A stretch of 64,000 bases of DNA from a phage. The notes below the pieces were generated by a model, which worked only from the letters and a program-made list of their open reading frames with translations, was not told where the DNA came from and searched no databases. Positions 5,424-11,242 of the stretch are shown here, one piece after another. Each line of letters begins with the position of its first letter. Position 1 is the stretch's first letter. The position numbers and the translations under genes were made by a program. The stretch lies in the sequence record PX393108.1, one strand, 5' to 3'.

Positions 5424-6209
5424 ATGGCAATTGTAGGTGTTCCTGGCTGGATTGGTGAATCTGCCGTGAATGAAACTGGACAACGTTGGATGGATGCTGC
5501 AATGAAAGCAGTTCGTGTTTCAGTTCCCGGTTGGATGAGCTCAATGGCTGGACAATCTAAAGAAGTATATTATAGCATTGGTGCTAGCAATTCTTATAAT
5601 AAAGACACACTAATAAATTGGATAAAAGCCCAAGGAAGTACTCCTGTTGTTATTACAATTACAGGCAATATCGTTTCTTCATCGACAGGTCAACCATGCT
5701 TAGATTTTCCTAGCTCATTAACTAATGCGTACGTGACACTTAATATCAATTCAGGTGTGCATGTTTGGGGTCGTGGAGGGAATGGTGGAAATAACTCTGC
5801 TGGTGGAGCAGGAGGAACTGCAATAAATAACGGAATTGGAACTAGATTACGTATTAACAACAACGGTGTTATCGCAGGAGGCGGTGGCGGCGGTGGCGGC
5901 GGATACTACTCTCCTTTTTCACAAATGAAATTGACTTTTGGCGGTGGCGGCGGTCGTCCATTTGGTGCTGCTGGCGGCTCTGCTAATATGGAACAAGGTG
6001 CTACCGCTGGTACTATTTCTGCACCCGGTAAAGGGTCTGTTAACGGTATCTATAATGGCGGGAATGGTGGTGATGCCGGAGCTGCAGGAGGTAAATGTAA
6101 TATTCGCGGCCAAGGATCAGAATATAACGGCGGCGCAGCAGGTAAAGCTGTTACTGGTAATGCTCCAACTTGGACTAAAGTTGGTACAATATACGGTTCA
6201 AGAGTATAA
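5424..6209 (+). CDS. 38: Receptor-recognising adhesin gp38 (T2-type, glycine-rich motifs)
   Basis: 261 aa with poly-Gly islands (GGGGGGGGGYY, FGGGGGRPFGAAGG) separated by variable segments; position after gene 37 and before t; T2-family gp38 is a tip adhesin of this architecture, unlike the 183-aa T4 gp38 chaperone. Confidence 0.85.
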   Translation: MAIVGVPGWIGESAVNETGQRWMDAAMKAVRVSVPGWMSSMAGQSKEVYYSIGASNSYNKDTLINWIKAQGSTPVVITITGNIVSSSTGQPCLDFPSSLTNAYVTLNINSGVHVWGRGGNGGNNSAGGAGGTAINNGIGTRLRINNNGVIAGGGGGGGGGYYSPFSQMKLTFGGGGGRPFGAAGGSANMEQGATAGTISAPGKGSVNGIYNGGNGGDAGAAGGKCNIRGQGSEYNGGAAGKAVTGNAPTWTKVGTIYGSRV

Positions 6210-6239: not shown

Positions 6240-6896
6240 ATGGCAGCACCTAGAATATCATTTTCGCCCTCTGATATTCTGTTGGGTGTTCTAGATCGCT
6301 TGTTCAAAGATAATGCTACCGGGAAAGTTCTTGCTTCCCGGGTAGCTGTCGTAATTCTTTTGTTTATAATGGCGATTGTTTGGTATAGGGGAGATAGTTT
6401 CTTTGAGTACTATAAGCAATCAAAGTATGAAACATACAGTGAAATTATTGAAAAGGAAAGAAATGCACGCTTTGAATCTGTCGCCCTGGAACAACTCCAG
6501 ATAGTTCATATATCATCTGAGGCAGACTTTAGTGCGGTGTATTCTTTCCGCCCTAAAAACTTAAACTATTTTGTTGATATTATAGCATATGAAGGAAGAC
6601 TACCTTCAACAATAACCGAAAAATCACTTGGAGGATATCCTGTTGATAAAACTATGGATGAATATACCGTTCATTTAAATGGACGTCATTATTATTCCAA
6701 CTCAAAATTTGCTTTTTTACCGACTAAAAAGCCTACTCCCGAAATAAATTACATGTACAGTTGTCCATATTTTAATTTGGATAATATCTATGCTGGAACA
6801 ATAACCATGTACTGGTATAGAAATGATCATATAAGTAATGACCGCCTTGAATCAATATGTTCTCAGGCGGCCAGAATATTAGGAAGGGCTAAATAA
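6240..6896 (+). CDS. t: Holin t
   Basis: 218 aa; N-terminal TM segment (VAVVILLFIMAIVWY) and large periplasmic domain; matches T4 holin T length and sequence as I recall it. Confidence 0.95.
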   Translation: MAAPRISFSPSDILLGVLDRLFKDNATGKVLASRVAVVILLFIMAIVWYRGDSFFEYYKQSKYETYSEIIEKERNARFESVALEQLQIVHISSEADFSAVYSFRPKNLNYFVDIIAYEGRLPSTITEKSLGGYPVDKTMDEYTVHLNGRHYYSNSKFAFLPTKKPTPEINYMYSCPYFNLDNIYAGTITMYWYRNDHISNDRLESICSQAARILGRAK

Positions 6897-7169
6897 TTAT
6901 TTGTTTGTATACATCTCTAGATATCGATATACACCCTCAAAACCCTCGTTGAATTCGTCGATGAGGGTTTTCTTATCTTCTTGGGTTAATTCAGAAACAA
7001 TTTTACGGAATGAATTCTGATTTAATTTTCTACCTTCATGCGTTACTCCAATCTCATTCAGAAATGCAATAAAATTAGCACGATTCTCAACAATATCTTC
7101 TCTGGAAAATTTAATCAAAATGGACGCAACAGTAATAATTTCACGAACTGTATCAATGTTTTTATTCAT
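6897..7169 (-). CDS. asiA: Anti-sigma-70 factor AsiA
   Basis: 90 aa, MNKNIDTVREIITVASILIKFSREDIVENRANFIAFLNEIGV... matches T4 AsiA. Confidence 0.95.
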   Translation of the reverse strand: MNKNIDTVREIITVASILIKFSREDIVENRANFIAFLNEIGVTHEGRKLNQNSFRKIVSELTQEDKKTLIDEFNEGFEGVYRYLEMYTNK

Positions 7170-7181
7170 TAACTATACCAC

Positions 7182-7334
7182 TCAATTAGTTGACTTTATT
7201 ATAATATCATCAGACGCTTGATTTGTAAACTGGTCTGTGTTATTTTCTTCAAAAATTTTTTCTACGAATTCCTTGAACGACTTACGTTCCTGAGCTACAT
7301 TATGCTCGATTACCTTTTCAAGATTATGACTCAT
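7182..7334 (-). CDS. Small hypothetical protein (50 aa), start overlaps arn stop (ATGA)
   Basis: Hand-translated ORF MSHNLEKVIEHNVAQERKSFKEFVEKIFEENNTDQFTNQASDDIIIKSTN in the arn-asiA gap; below the ORF-track size cut-off. Confidence 0.3.
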   Translation of the reverse strand: MSHNLEKVIEHNVAQERKSFKEFVEKIFEENNTDQFTNQASDDIIIKSTN

Positions 7335-7609
7335 TCGAAATAATCTTCAATTTCGTAATCATGGACATAAATCATTATAGTTTTTAATACATCATCAATA
7401 CTTTTTCCTGGAGCTGGAATTACGTAAAAATATCCCGCCTTTGAGTTATCTTTATAAGTTCCAATCAAGAAATCATTATTCTCGAGATGCAGTTCTTCAA
7501 CTAATTCATTAACAATTGAGTGGTATAAATTTGGTAGAAACTTATATAGCTTTTCTAGAATATCAATTTTGATTGTATATTGAACCACAGATTGAGAATC
7601 AATAATCAT
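7331..7609 (-). CDS. arn: Anti-restriction nuclease Arn (McrBC inhibitor)
   Basis: 92 aa, acidic; length and position next to asiA consistent with T4 Arn. Confidence 0.8.
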   Translation of the reverse strand: MIIDSQSVVQYTIKIDILEKLYKFLPNLYHSIVNELVEELHLENNDFLIGTYKDNSKAGYFYVIPAPGKSIDDVLKTIMIYVHDYEIEDYFE

Positions 7610-7692
7610 AGACCTTCCCCTTATGTTTCTGTTTGCGATTAGATTCTTTAAACGCTTTCTTCTTATCCTTATGAACAGAAGCTTTATTAAAA

Positions 7693-7911
7693 TTATGTTT
7701 TGCGACTAAATTGTTCATAGTGCTGAATTACCTCTCTTAAACATTTGCATGTGAATGAAAACTTTTTAGCTACACCACATTCAAATATATGTTCTCTTAA
7801 ATCACGTGTATCAGTATATCCCATCTCAACGATAAAATGCCGTATTAGATTTTTATCTTTATCATTAAGAGAATTAAAATAATCGGATTTTGAATTAATT
7901 TCCCTGGCCAA
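7693..7911 (-). CDS. Hypothetical early protein (72 aa)
   Basis: ORF with tight stop/start coupling to neighbours; no recognisable motif. Confidence 0.5.
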   Translation of the reverse strand: MAREINSKSDYFNSLNDKDKNLIRHFIVEMGYTDTRDLREHIFECGVAKKFSFTCKCLREVIQHYEQFSRKT

Positions 7912-8191
7912 ATTGAATCACCTTCAGTTGACGTTTTAGTTCTTTTATCATCTCTTCGTTCATCGCAATATAAAGATCGCGTAAAGCAGGCTTTAGCATT
8001 CCATTTACTGGAGAACTAAATGGGCATACATAATCTTTTCCTACGAGCTTTTTAGTGAATTCCATATTACAGAACTGAAATGCCGGTTCATTGGCATAAA
8101 TTCCCCATTTGGTTGACATCATTTTATTGGCATATTCTAATGCCTGGATTTGATTCATAATTCCATCAATTTGAAACTTTTTAATATTCAT
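7895..8191 (-). CDS. Hypothetical early protein (98 aa)
   Basis: ORF packed in the same-strand operon between arn and motA. Confidence 0.55.
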   Translation of the reverse strand: MNIKKFQIDGIMNQIQALEYANKMMSTKWGIYANEPAFQFCNMEFTKKLVGKDYVCPFSSPVNGMLKPALRDLYIAMNEEMIKELKRQLKVIQFGQGN

Positions 8192-8652
8192 TAGTAAAGG
8201 TCCTCAGAGTAAAGTTCTTTTTCACTACCACCACGTTCAATACGCACTTGTCCAGCATAAGTTGCAATAATCATTGCTTCTTCACGTGTCCAATAATTAC
8301 TATATTGGTCAATAAACCCTTGGTCATCATCACAAACTTGTTGAGTAACTAATTGAGGTTTAACTGCATCTAAAACTGCTGCCATATCTTTAGAATAATG
8401 ACGAGCACCTGGAATAACAAGAGTTCGTCCATCTTTTAATTTAAAACGGTTGGCTGCGCAAACAATTCGTCGTTGATACTTTTGGTTTTCATCCCAGTAT
8501 GCAGTCTGCCAACAGATTTCAGGAACTTCATCTAAAACATTTTGTTCTGTGTATTCACCACTGTAAGAAGCTAATTTAGCCGCCAAACTTTCTGGAGTCT
8601 CACGTGACAAAGCTTTATCTAACAGAGCTAAACGTTCTTTAAAAGTTTTCAT
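8191..8652 (-). CDS. Hypothetical early protein (153 aa)
   Basis: ORF with 1-nt stop/start overlap to the downstream gene; no motif recognised. Confidence 0.6.
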
Positions 8653-8993
8653 TTAAACCATCCTTTAATACGCTGCCACAAAGTTTTCTGTTGAGCTTTG
8701 TTAACACCAATTGAGCGAATAACTGGTTGAGATTCCTGGAATTCTTTATAATCAGCAAGGTAAATTTCGTAAGCTGCATCCGTAAATGAACTTATCGCTG
8801 CCATGAAGTTTTTACGTACACCGCCAGGAGCTACTCCGTTGGGTAATTCAGAATTTTCACGAATAATTAAATATAACCCAGCTCTAACCTTAACAATAGT
8901 TCCAAGATAAGCTCCATGGTACCAGATATCCCACCCCTCTTGAGTGGGTTCTGCACAACGACGAAGTTCATTGATAATTTCTAACTTGTTCAT
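8649..8993 (-). CDS. Hypothetical early protein (114 aa)
   Basis: ORF overlapping the downstream start by 4 nt (translational coupling). Confidence 0.6.
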
Positions 8994-9003
8994 TATTTAT
9001 TCC

Positions 9004-9639
9004 TCACAGTTCAGATGCTACGGTGATTACTGCTTCAATGTTTTCTGCCGAGCGTTTAATGTCAAGATACACATTACCATTTTTAGCGATTTTACATGAC
9101 ATTCCGATATCAGTAAATTTCTGAATATGATGTTCCATCATTTTGTATCCAAAAATTCGCATATTTCCATTGTTGTTAATTTCAAAATTACGAATTCCGT
9201 GAGTGCGTTTTTCTAAAATAGCGAGATAGTTACTACGATAAGTTTCAACCTTTTTAAGAACAAATCCATTTTCATCTAAAAGTTTTAACATGAAGTCTTT
9301 ATCTTCTTCCATATCAGAAGTAATCTCACGAGCTTTACGAGTTGCTCGTTTTTTCAGTAGTTCCGGAGCATTTTCCTGTGCGTATAAAGTTGCTGCATTT
9401 GAAATAATATCCTGAGCTTCACCAGTAATGATTAATCCATCACCAGATTTCTCCACCAGGCCTTTTTTAATCAATACCCCAATATTACTATTAACTACTG
9501 CATTACCTAAATCTGGATGCACCTCACGAACTTCTGCAGCTGTAATGAAATCTTTCTTAGCAATGGTAATTAAAATCGCAGCAGTTTTTTCATTCAGAAC
9601 ATCGTTAGAAGCTTTGATGATGTAAGTTACTTTAGACAT
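9004..9639 (-). CDS. motA: Middle-transcription activator MotA
   Basis: 211 aa, MSKVTYIIKASNDVLNEKTAAILITIAKKDFITAAEVREVHPDLGN... matches T4 MotA. Confidence 0.95.
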   Translation of the reverse strand: MSKVTYIIKASNDVLNEKTAAILITIAKKDFITAAEVREVHPDLGNAVVNSNIGVLIKKGLVEKSGDGLIITGEAQDIISNAATLYAQENAPELLKKRATRKAREITSDMEEDKDFMLKLLDENGFVLKKVETYRSNYLAILEKRTHGIRNFEINNNGNMRIFGYKMMEHHIQKFTDIGMSCKIAKNGNVYLDIKRSAENIEAVITVASEL

Positions 9640-9674
9640 TTTCTAATCTCCGTAATTCTGTATCAGTAGTTGAT

Positions 9675-9735
9675 AGTTGTATAGTACCACAGTATGCTTT
9701 GGTTGTAAACCGTTTTGTGAAAAAAATTTTGAAAT
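9675..9735 (-). promoter_or_regulatory. T4-type early promoter upstream of motA (-35 TTTACA, 17-nt spacer, -10 TACTAT, A/T-rich UP region)
   Basis: Minus-strand sequence ...CACAAAACGGTTTACAACCAAAGCATACTGTGGTACTATACAACTATCAACTACTGATAC...; member of a repeated element family in this window. Confidence 0.6.
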
Positions 9736-9741
9736 AAAAAA

Positions 9742-9761
9742 GGGAGAGCCTCGGCTCTCCC
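9742..9761 (-). terminator. Rho-independent terminator (GGGAGAG...CTCTCCC hairpin + T-run on minus strand) after gene 52
   Basis: Inverted repeat GGGAGAGCCTCGGCTCTCCC followed on the minus strand by TTTTTTATTTC. Confidence 0.5.
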
Positions 9762-9767
9762 TAAAAT

Positions 9768-9917
9768 TTACTGCATGACTGTGATAACTGTCATGATAAC
9801 ACGTTGAATTCCGAACGCAAGAAGACCTCCTGCTACGGCTGGAACAACACCTAAACCCGCCAGTAAAATGCAACCGGATACTAATGCAGCGCCTGTAATA
9901 CCTATGAATGGACTCAT
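9768..9917 (-). CDS. Small hydrophobic peptide (49 aa), start overlaps gene 52 stop
   Basis: Hand-translated MSPFIGITGAALVSGCILLAGLGVVPAVAGGLLAFGIQRVIMTVITVMQ; ATGA overlap with gene 52 stop; ends just before the terminator hairpin. Confidence 0.35.
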   Translation of the reverse strand: MSPFIGITGAALVSGCILLAGLGVVPAVAGGLLAFGIQRVIMTVITVMQ

Positions 9918-11242
9918 TTGATTTCCTCTAAATCTTTGGTGTATTCTGTAACTACATCAGTAGTTTTCCAATATTCGTTTTCTTCTTTTTTAGCTTTAGC
10001 TTCTTCAGCAAGTTTCTTTGCTTCGTCGGAAGTCATATGAAAAATATTCATTCCGACTAGTTTATCAACATAAGAAGAATACATATCAATTTTAGAAAGT
10101 TCTTCAGTCAGTTCTTTGCGAGTTTTACCCTGTACAACGATTTCACCTGAAATTACTTTCTTAATGAAATGTGCCTTGGCAAAGGCTAAACGAAATGCCG
10201 ATTCAGTTTCTTTGATTTTGTTATCAATTCGTTTTTGGACATAAGTTTTACGAACTTCAACGAAGTCTTTAATTAAATCAACTACGTTATCGTAAACTTG
10301 TAGTTTTCCTTTCTCATTAATAACGGTAATATTCTGGGAACGACGCTCAATCAACCCGAAGTCTTTCATGATTTTTGCATGGCGTTCTTCTTCGTTATCG
10401 CTCAAGGAATATTCTTTACGGAATTTAACTTTGAAGCCAAAACCATGCTCACCGCAAGCATCATCCCACGTAATGAAGCCTTTATCTTCAAGCGGGTCTA
10501 AGATTTTACTCACATAAGTTTCACGATCATACTTATACGGAATCTCAGTGATATTCATTTGAGTTCGTGAGGTAAACTTGTACGTTCCACGAATTTCATA
10601 TTGACCGTCAATTTCAACGACTTCACCGCGAAATTCTGGGAATTCTACCTTCGGTTTAGTTACTTTCTTTCCTTGAAGAGCTTGTAGTACAGCTTTCTTG
10701 ACAGAAGAAACGCTATGAGGAAGAATGTAAGTTGCATAACCAGTTGCAATACCGGAAACACCATTAAGAAGAACGGTAGGAATAATAGGCAAATAGAAAG
10801 CAGGCGGAATGTGTTCTTTATCTTGATGTACCGGAGCATATTCAGTATCTTTATATACGTTATAGAAATTTTTACTTACACGAGCAAAAATATAACGACT
10901 TGCCGCTGCTTTTTGAACAGTACGAGAACCAAAGTTTCCTTGACCATCTAACAAAGGAAAGTTATTATTCCAAGTATTAGCCATCAAAGCCCCCGCATCT
11001 TGCGCAGAGTTTTCGCCATGATGATATCCAAGGTCCGCTACACCGCCTGCAATAGAAGCGAGTTTGTGAAACTTATCTTTATTTCCTCGTGCCAAATCAA
11101 GAGCTCGAGCGATAACAAATCGTTGAACTGGCTTAAATCCATCAATCATATTTGGAATAGCACGATTTTCAACCGTGTACATAGCATAAGCCAGTGCTTC
11201 ATTATCAATGATACTTTTTAAATCGCGATTATTCAGTTGCAT
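9914..11242 (-). CDS. 52: DNA topoisomerase II medium subunit gp52
   Basis: 442 aa; gyrase-A/ParC-like motifs; T4 gp52 length and position. Confidence 0.95.
   Translation of the reverse strand: MQLNNRDLKSIIDNEALAYAMYTVENRAIPNMIDGFKPVQRFVIARALDLARGNKDKFHKLASIAGGVADLGYHHGENSAQDAGALMANTWNNNFPLLDGQGNFGSRTVQKAAASRYIFARVSKNFYNVYKDTEYAPVHQDKEHIPPAFYLPIIPTVLLNGVSGIATGYATYILPHSVSSVKKAVLQALQGKKVTKPKVEFPEFRGEVVEIDGQYEIRGTYKFTSRTQMNITEIPYKYDRETYVSKILDPLEDKGFITWDDACGEHGFGFKVKFRKEYSLSDNEEERHAKIMKDFGLIERRSQNITVINEKGKLQVYDNVVDLIKDFVEVRKTYVQKRIDNKIKETESAFRLAFAKAHFIKKVISGEIVVQGKTRKELTEELSKIDMYSSYVDKLVGMNIFHMTSDEAKKLAEEAKAKKEENEYWKTTDVVTEYTKDLEEIK

Follow-up and report, generated by a model that had tools for sequence, protein, structure and literature searches.

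A CmdA-like N-terminal module in Arn.3, a small protein of the T-even arn operon

In T4-like phages a series of short genes separates motA from asiA, which raises a simple question: what do their products do? In the 64,000-nucleotide phage sequence PX393108.1 (the whole stretch analysed, hereafter the window), an earlier note on the DNA alone had described five such open reading frames (ORFs), of 50, 72, 98, 153 and 114 aa, as tightly coupled, without recognisable motifs and candidates for host interference or anti-defence. All five are present on the minus strand at these lengths. They belong to the already known 'arn operon' of T-even phages, occur with conservation across hundreds of Tequatroviruses, and are named in the T4 annotation (NC_000866) asiA.1, arn.1 (longer here), arn.2, arn.3 and arn.4 (longer here). 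The candidacy for anti-defence stands for arn.3, on the strength of homology to the antitoxin CmdA, but context is all that was found in its favour for asiA.1, arn.1, arn.2 and arn.4. The absence of motifs likewise holds for asiA.1, arn.1 and arn.2 but not for Arn.3, which has a CmdA-like N-terminus and a PF26092 domain, nor for Arn.4, which belongs to the named family PF26821. Of the checks that the note had proposed, remote homology searching gave the CmdA-like module of Arn.3 (PADLOC, hhalign), and structure prediction gave an Arn.3 model with an N-terminal helix pair and a folded C-terminal domain, with no structural relative of PF26092 in the PDB. The features of arn.3 are:

8191..8652, minus strand: arn.3, 153 aa, a two-part protein (ORF)
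8560..8652, minus strand: CmdA-antitoxin-like helix pair, Arn.3 residues 1-31 (PADLOC, hhalign, BLASTP)
8194..8523, minus strand: PF26092 domain, Arn.3 residues 44-153 (family annotation, conserved residues)

CmdTAC, also catalogued as PD-T4-9 (PADLOC PDLC04070; Vassallo et al. 2022, 2024), is a toxin-antitoxin-chaperone (TAC) system of P2-like prophages. CmdT is an mRNA ADP-ribosyltransferase toxin that has an HY-[E,D,Q] triad and is assigned to the diphtheria-toxin family, CmdA is the antitoxin and CmdC a SecB-like chaperone; upon infection the T4 capsid protein displaces CmdA from CmdC, ClpXP degrades CmdA and CmdT aborts the infection, a restriction that is specific to Tevenvirinae (PMC11618068, PMC9519451).

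Sequence comparison shows residues 1-31 of Arn.3 to be a homologue of the pair of helices at the N-terminus of CmdA. They align to positions 1-31 of the 77-position PADLOC profile PD-T4-9_B (33 bits, E 1.7e-8), in hhalign the module aligns with CmdA over 31 columns at 61% identity (probability 98.8%, E 9.2e-17), and BLASTP finds the module 66% identical to a Serratia CmdA over 32 aa. The shared pattern reads F-x-E-R-hydrophobic-A-L-L-D-K-A-L...T-P-E-S-L..K-L.S-Y. When a profile of twelve T-even Arn.3 N-termini was searched against 5.8e9 sequences, it retrieved 77-81-aa proteins from Serratia, Lelliottia and metagenomes (E 8e-9 to 1e-7), with C-termini ending in ..LDLAA or ..LDQAA. The genes of two of these proteins, P0186 and P0187, are flanked by a 190-195-aa homologue of PD-T4-9_A (5e-90 in L007, 2e-89 in L010) and by a SecB-like homologue of PD-T4-9_C of 129 aa (6e-59), the PD-T4-9_B match being 7e-35, and in L007, the P0186 locus, the CmdTAC genes adjoin P2 gpA and a CBASS (cyclic oligonucleotide-based antiphage signalling) locus. 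In the Serratia contigs L007 and L008 (4353-6246) it was also seen that CmdTAC, within a P2-like hypervariable region, adjoins CBASS-like genes (SAVED, JAB, E1/ThiF).

Over the codons of the module, the nucleotide identity of Arn.3 and CmdA is only 53-61%, which indicates that the likeness has been kept by constraint at the protein level and excludes a recent horizontal transfer of the module. The AlphaFold2 (AF2) model of Arn.3 places helices at residues 4-16 and 20-28, and these agree with the published description of CmdA. We infer that this helix pair is the toxin-neutralising part of CmdA.

The resemblance ends with the module. Arn.3 lacks the disordered chaperone-addiction (ChAD) region of CmdA: the match stops at position 31 of the 77 in the profile, and residues 44-153 are predicted to be globular. 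It also lacks the C-terminal Ala-Ala degron for ClpXP, ending instead in ...LYSEDLY, and its gene has arn.4 and arn.2 as neighbours, not CmdT and the SecB-like CmdC. Given that three of the four testable features of CmdA are absent, Arn.3 is not a full member of the CmdA family and shares its N-terminal module only. Residues 1-31 are the sole CmdA-like stretch in the window, and tblastn found no match to CmdT or CmdC below E 1 anywhere in it. No mention of the homology between CmdA and Arn.3, or of the fused architecture, was found in the literature searched. Both are new, as are the size and structural isolation of PF26092 and two corrections to the annotation given below; the arn genes as T4 ORFs were already known, and so were phage-borne relatives or mimics of antitoxins as a kind of mechanism.

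The module and the remainder of Arn.3 have different histories. Between the window and T4, the N-terminal module differs with a synonymous divergence (pS) of 0.56 and a nonsynonymous divergence (pN) of 0.33, whereas pS in the core is 0.06; such a divergent module on a near-identical core points to a swapped module. At least five N-module alleles occur among 15 phages, that of T4 being less CmdA-like than that of the window (14.7 vs 33 bits), and Arn.3 as a whole is under purifying selection (pN/pS 0.04-0.58). With its allele swapping, five or more alleles and tandem modules, the Arn.3 module thus behaves, in its sequence record, like an arms-race interface. The tandem case is a 203-aa Arn.3 homologue from a 170-kb phage contig (P0008), in which a CmdA-like and a T4-like module precede a single PF26092 domain.

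Separately, three proteins of 51-75 aa, P0194 (L003-L006), P0192 (L030-L032) and P0184 (L011), consist of a CmdA module with neither ChAD tail nor degron, and their loci have no CmdT or CmdC neighbours. The context of P0184 is phage, and P0194 and P0192 lie in unassigned elements rich in small ORFs, one of them with an SprT-like gene. These short proteins may be stand-alone antitoxin mimics; plasmid and phage searches with the CmdA-like module or with P0194 gave no further contexts.

It is proposed, with a probability of roughly 0.35, that Arn.3 serves as a stable mimic of an antitoxin, directed against toxins of the CmdT type. What makes a TAC antitoxin dependent on its chaperone and labile to proteases is its C-terminal tail, and both deletion of the ChAD of HigA (delta122-218) and an AA-to-DD change in CmdA abolish toxicity and leave stable neutralisers (Mets et al. 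preprint). Since removal of the tail yields a stable neutraliser, a decoy antitoxin would be expected to look like Arn.3, with the N-terminal module alone borne on a scaffold that is stable. Arn.3 would be made early and would not be a substrate of ClpXP; as a degradation-resistant mimic, it would bind toxins of the CmdT family after the host antitoxin has been lost. The module would bind and neutralise CmdT, with PF26092 contributing stability, oligomerisation or an activity of its own. The allele of the N-terminal module would set the specificity, and would be exchanged among phages independently of the core.

Published platings of 12 BASEL Tevenvirinae on ECOR22 cmdTAC were compared with the Arn.3 alleles extracted from each genome. 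All eight phages with the T4-type allele (Bas37 and Bas39-45) count as restricted, the six listed efficiencies of plating (EOPs; Bas37, Bas39, Bas40 and Bas43-45) being 6e-7 to 1e-4, and Bas46, which has the Mosigvirus allele, is restricted too; the EOPs listed for Bas46 and T4 fall within these limits. T4 itself, also with the T4-type allele, is restricted at least 10^3-fold in ECOR22, and Bas35 and Bas38 are the only exceptions to restriction among Bas35-Bas46 (PMC11618068, PMC9519451). These two escapers (EOP 0.85 and 0.32, respectively) each carry a unique allele of the Arn.3 N-module, a link between escape and unusual alleles that is suggestive only. A C-terminal extension of Alt.-3 gives escape from CmdTAC in the laboratory (PMC11618068, PMC9519451); a natural extension of this kind was rejected as the cause in Bas35 and Bas38, Alt.-3 being wild-type in both. 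Bas35 (WilhelmHis, MZ501113; L016) has in addition an extra ORF of 51 aa (8841-8996, phrog_15636) between arn.3 and arn.4, which is absent from the window and from the other loci examined.

Several observations weigh against an antitoxin mimic. First and chiefly, Bas36, whose module is that of the window with one substitution in 31 residues, is restricted 2x10^5-fold (EOP 5e-6); the window-type allele therefore does not defeat the CmdTAC of ECOR22. Second, the association of escape with a non-T4 allele is not significant (two escapers among four non-T4 alleles, 12 phages, P ~0.09) and it is confounded, because both escapers share S138 in the major capsid protein gp23, the trigger of CmdTAC, where the restricted T4 and Bas36 have A138; the other variable positions of gp23 (136-220, 405) do not co-segregate with escape in these four phages (L041-L044: Bas35, Bas38, Bas36, T4). 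Third, laboratory-selected escape mutants of T4 map to alt.-3 and not to arn.3 (PMC11618068, PMC9519451). Fourth, the conserved positions of the module are largely helix-core and N-cap residues. Fifth, PF26092 occurs without a CmdA-like module in thousands of phages, so the primary role of Arn.3 may be unrelated to CmdTAC. It is the comparison with the BASEL platings that lowers confidence in a simple mimic to about the value given above. CmdA sequences are nevertheless 'widely variable' among CmdTAC homologues (PMC11618068, PMC9519451), and as a consequence Arn.3 may be matched, allele by allele, to particular CmdTAC variants.

The breadth of PF26092 bears directly on this question. The assignment comes from the precomputed annotation of a 99%-identical cluster (P0001) and of 119 of the 120 homologues listed, the exception (P0100) being a truncated product. 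At E<=1e-3 the family has 3,505 cluster representatives, and the domain is carried by Ackermannviridae, T5-like and Pseudomonas jumbo phages, none with known exposure to CmdTAC. The domain is always C-terminal, minimal members of 83-100 aa consist of it alone, and AF2 models residues 44-153 of Arn.3 confidently as compact and globular. Arn.3 and 146 distant representatives have a motif set in common in which R61, R84-H85, Q111-G112-F113, D115, R123, Q135 and a C-terminal LxSExLY are invariant or nearly so, and the CmdA-like module is present in just 11 of 48 sampled members. Most of this favours a rather doubtful alternative in which PF26092 is itself the working part: it would have a conserved polar pocket, act as a small enzyme or as a 'sponge' for some ligand, and be employed by many phages that are not related. 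Extensions at the N-terminus would then be lineage-specific accessories, and the CmdA-like hairpin incidental; it might, for instance, serve oligomerisation or solubility and be shared through common descent. Such a role draws no help from the ten long members of the family (214-434 aa), in which no Pfam or PADLOC domain is fused, and it leaves unexplained why 61-66% identity to CmdA has been kept despite saturated synonymous sites. Whatever becomes of the antitoxin-mimic idea, PF26092 is hereby flagged as a very large phage family that lacks a structural assignment.

A further alternative, and an unlikely one, is that the CmdA-like module binds a different partner, either a phage ADP-ribosyltransferase (ART: Alt, ModA or ModB) or a host protein, and that the arn.x genes have a part in taking over the host or in regulating genes, not in counter-defence. 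The position of the genes between those of the transcription takeover factors MotA and AsiA is consistent with this, as are the presence of several ARTs in T-evens (Alt and Alt2 are annotated in BASEL phages) and the failure of the window-type allele to protect Bas36. Against it, the only relatives of the module with statistical support are CmdA antitoxins and short CmdA-like proteins, and the Alt and Mod enzymes of T4 belong to a different ART class (R-S-E) from CmdT. Neither a working PF26092 domain nor another partner for the module is exclusive of an antitoxin mimic, and both are compatible with it. A bolder extension, which must be thought improbable, would take PF26092 as a new-fold counter-defence chassis found across phages, with N-terminal extensions as swappable targeting modules copied from components of host defences. 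The CmdA-like head of the T-evens would be the first recognisable example, and the alleles of Arn.3 would decide which CmdTAC variants are overcome, thereby explaining the escape of Bas35 and Bas38.

The remaining genes have to be judged within their locus. The segment of the window from 5.4 to 11.2 kb is that of a Tequatrovirus (a T4-like phage), in the order 38 (a T2/T6-type adhesin), t, asiA, arn, motA, 52, and Pfam bears out the asiA-arn-motA neighbourhood given in the earlier note (AsiA, PF09010, 1e-42; Arn, PF22134, 4.8e-53; MotA, PF09158, 9e-67 and PF09114, 5e-61). The gp38 gene (5424-6209, plus strand) encodes a 261-aa glycine-rich adhesin of the T2/T6 type, not a chaperone of the T4 type, so the phage is a receptor binder of the T2/T6 type. 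A 2.9-kb block is matched in 847 phage records (best identity 97.3%), with at least 80% query coverage in 478 of these, and each listed ORF matches a PHROG family of its own (E 1e-37 to 1e-73); together these matches place the block far from a chance pattern of ORFs. The features around arn.3 are:

9741-9762, minus strand: terminator-like hairpin ahead of the motA promoter-like site (consensus match only)
9681..9709, minus strand: early-type promoter-like site upstream of motA (consensus match only)
9004..9639, minus strand: motA, context gene, first of the transcription unit (PF09158, PF09114)
8649..8993, minus strand: arn.4, long form, 114 aa, PF26821, a family of unknown function (ORF; family annotation)
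7895..8191, minus strand: arn.2, 98 aa, basic, no assigned function (phrog_1844, 1e-49)
7331..7609, minus strand: arn, DNA-mimic McrBC inhibitor, context gene (PF22134)
7201..7229, minus strand: sigma-70 early-type promoter-like site for asiA, inside asiA.1, TTTACA-17-TATTAT with TG (consensus match only)
7182..7334, minus strand: asiA.1, 50 aa, no assigned function (ORF; phrog_3762, 1.6e-37; isoelectric point (pI) 4.9)

The tight coupling described in the earlier note is borne out. The pairs arn.4/arn.3 and arn/asiA.1 overlap by 4 nt (ATGA), arn.3/arn.2 by 1 nt (TAATG) and arn.2/arn.1 by 17 nt, while at the ends of the block motA is followed by a gap of 10 nt and asiA preceded by one of 12 nt, and most starts are preceded by a Shine-Dalgarno sequence. 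Such end-to-end overlaps suggest translational coupling. A consensus scan of the minus strand found no terminator-like site from motA to asiA, the sole terminator-like hairpin lying upstream of the early-type promoter-like site that precedes motA; a strict pattern found no canonical MotA-box middle promoter in 6800-10000, and an Rfam scan gave nothing relevant. As judged from these scans, the motA-to-asiA block probably forms one early unit, which would be transcribed in the order motA, arn.4, arn.3, arn.2, arn.1, a DUF7230 ORF, arn, asiA.1, asiA. The only discussion of the arn-operon small genes found in the literature searched is a preprint on T2, in which the arn.4-arn transcript is highly abundant by RNA-seq, plasmid-expressed His-tagged Arn.2 is seen by immunoblot in E. 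coli, and the functions of the products are stated to be unknown, counter-defence being called 'conceivable' (preprint 10.64898/2026.06.19.733364).

Two corrections to the gene map follow, since the five listed ORFs are real but a sixth small gene had been overlooked among them, and since arn.1 is better read as longer than in T4:

7599..7718, minus strand: sixth small gene, 39 aa, DUF7230, very basic, pI 10.2 (PF23876, phrog_1359)
7693..7911, minus strand: arn.1, long form, 72 aa, TTG start at 7911-7909 (phrog_4452, full length)

The first of these occupies what was taken for an 84-bp gap between arn.1 and arn, overlapping the 3' end of arn.1 by 26 nt and the start of arn by 11 nt. It matches PF23876 with 44.9 bits (gathering cutoff 27; E 1.2e-11) and is intact and nearly invariant in T4 and in 13 of 13 BASEL Tevenvirinae examined, including Bas42, which has no arn.1, yet neither the T4 reference nor the BASEL genomes annotate it. 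Its non-overlapping part, measured against the diverged Mosigvirus copy, has a pN/pS of 0.19-0.23, and on this sequence evidence the DUF7230 ORF is a real gene under purifying selection. An ArfA-like ribosome rescue factor was considered and rejected for its product: BLASTP gave no alignment to E. coli ArfA at E<=100, and PF03889 was not matched. As for arn.1, the T4 annotation has 43 aa, from an internal ATG at 7824. The 29-codon 5' extension (7824-7911) is open in all phages compared, its pN/pS of 0.29-0.32 equals that of the rest of the gene, and in the Mosigvirus/Bas38 lineage (Bas38, Bas46 and Bas47) the long form starts ATG-ATG. The coding record thus makes 72 aa the better reading.

The longer arn.1 has a consequence for the reported control of the operon by the small RNA (sRNA) ArcZ:

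7898..7907, minus strand: ArcZ sRNA pairing site CCAGGGAAAU, the exact complement of E. coli K-12 ArcZ AUUUCCCUGG
7836..7840, minus strand: GCAUU motif, 11 nt upstream of the internal arn.1 ATG (motif match)

The pairing site corresponds to that reported in T2 at +285..+294, and the T2 counterpart of the GCAUU motif is a putative RNase E site (preprint 10.64898/2026.06.19.733364). In the window the pairing site spans the final codons of arn.2 together with the opening codons of the long arn.1, beginning one nucleotide past the TTG start, and the stretch separating arn.2 from arn.1 that is treated in the T2 study and in T4 as a '70-nt intergenic region' appears to be coding under the long arn.1. 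Given this position over the start region, ArcZ could also affect the translation of arn.1, and the coding status of the supposed intergenic stretch bears on the current model of ArcZ control. Two highly divergent arn.2 alleles exist among T-evens, and the site is absent from the phages with the divergent one (Bas38, Bas42, Bas46 and Bas47).

For the small proteins taken together, scans against Pfam, NCBIfam and PADLOC gave nothing significant except the DUF7230 and CmdA matches, and PDB sequence searches (Arn.2, and profiles of Arn.3 and Arn.4) gave nothing below E 0.3; matches of Arn.4 to REase_II (15 bits) and of Arn.3 to Prok-E2_B (14 bits) were dismissed as noise. The PF26821 assignment of Arn.4 is taken from annotation that had been precomputed for P0121, which is 97% identical, and for all 56 homologues; relatives normally have 107-119 aa, and the T4 gene is truncated to 68 aa (L002 3128-3334), with a 133-bp gap to motA. 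Arn.4, Arn.2, Arn.1, AsiA.1 and the DUF7230 protein are all genuine proteins under selection, from which no function can be read.

It is highly improbable that these proteins resemble Arn in being mimics of DNA or inhibitors of restriction, a possibility raised by the earlier note and one for which their adjacency to arn speaks. Many phage records do carry the label 'anti-restriction nuclease', which probably propagates from arn. However, Arn.1, Arn.2 and Arn.4 are basic (pI 8.5-9.2), set against the acidic Arn (pI 4.55), with only AsiA.1 and Arn.3 mildly acidic; the pI values of the six small proteins lie between 4.9 and 10.2, and no match to PF22134 or to any anti-restriction family of Pfam or PADLOC was obtained with them. 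That the ORFs are unexpressed or functionless filler is scarcely credible: T4 manages with a truncated arn.4 and Bas42 with no arn.1, and all of the ORFs are uncharacterised, but against this stand conservation in hundreds of genomes, Shine-Dalgarno sequences, coupled stop and start codons, pN/pS values well below one (that of Arn.3 and 0.19-0.33 for arn.1 and the DUF7230 ORF), the T2 transcript and the detection of plasmid-made Arn.2. Neither of the outcomes that the earlier note had named as counting against its proposal was found, the homology searches having given no housekeeping function and lack of expression being countered by the abundant arn.4-arn transcript.

Should Arn.3 prove to be a stable mimic of CmdA, phages would have in it a natural counter to a TAC system, and it would be one of the rare binding-type antitoxin modules that can be recognised from sequence in a lytic phage. 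Some of the differences in host range between therapeutic T4-like phages would then be explained as well. The CmdA-like head makes such a counter-defence role directly testable. In the literature searched, neither a natural phage inhibitor of CmdTAC, itself a well-studied system, nor a natural phage counter to any TAC system was found.

The nearest known protein is CmdA itself, which has the same first ~31 residues (61-66% identical) and the same predicted helix pair. It differs in having a disordered ChAD tail, an AA degron and CmdT and CmdC as neighbours; Arn.3 has none of these, is encoded by a lytic phage and has the module fused to a globular PF26092 domain. TAC antitoxins with a deleted ChAD or a mutated degron neutralise without a chaperone, the behaviour that by analogy is proposed for the Arn.3 module, although they are laboratory constructs of a cognate antitoxin whereas Arn.3 is natural, diverged and fused. 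The Dmd protein of T4 is also early, and it directly binds and neutralises the toxin of host RnlAB or LsoAB when the labile antitoxin has gone. The sequence of Dmd is not known to be related to those of the host antitoxins; by contrast, the Arn.3 module is a true homologue. The DarG mimic of ICP1 is another phage-borne relative or mimic of an antitoxin. Arn (PF22134) is, like Arn.3, a small early protein from a common transcription unit, but bears no resemblance in sequence or charge to any of the six small proteins. Finally, AdfN (gp30.3) is an orphan DarG1-like antitoxin of T-evens that acts against DarTG1 (PMC11257639). Like Arn.3, it is found in lytic T-evens and is a stand-alone relative of an antitoxin whose toxin is an anti-phage ADP-ribosyltransferase. 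Unlike Arn.3, it works enzymatically, undoing the modification as a NADAR glycohydrolase, and has a demonstrated function (PMC11257639); Arn.3, as judged from its sequence, has only the N-terminal module of its antitoxin relative and would act by binding the toxin, following the logic of a type II system.

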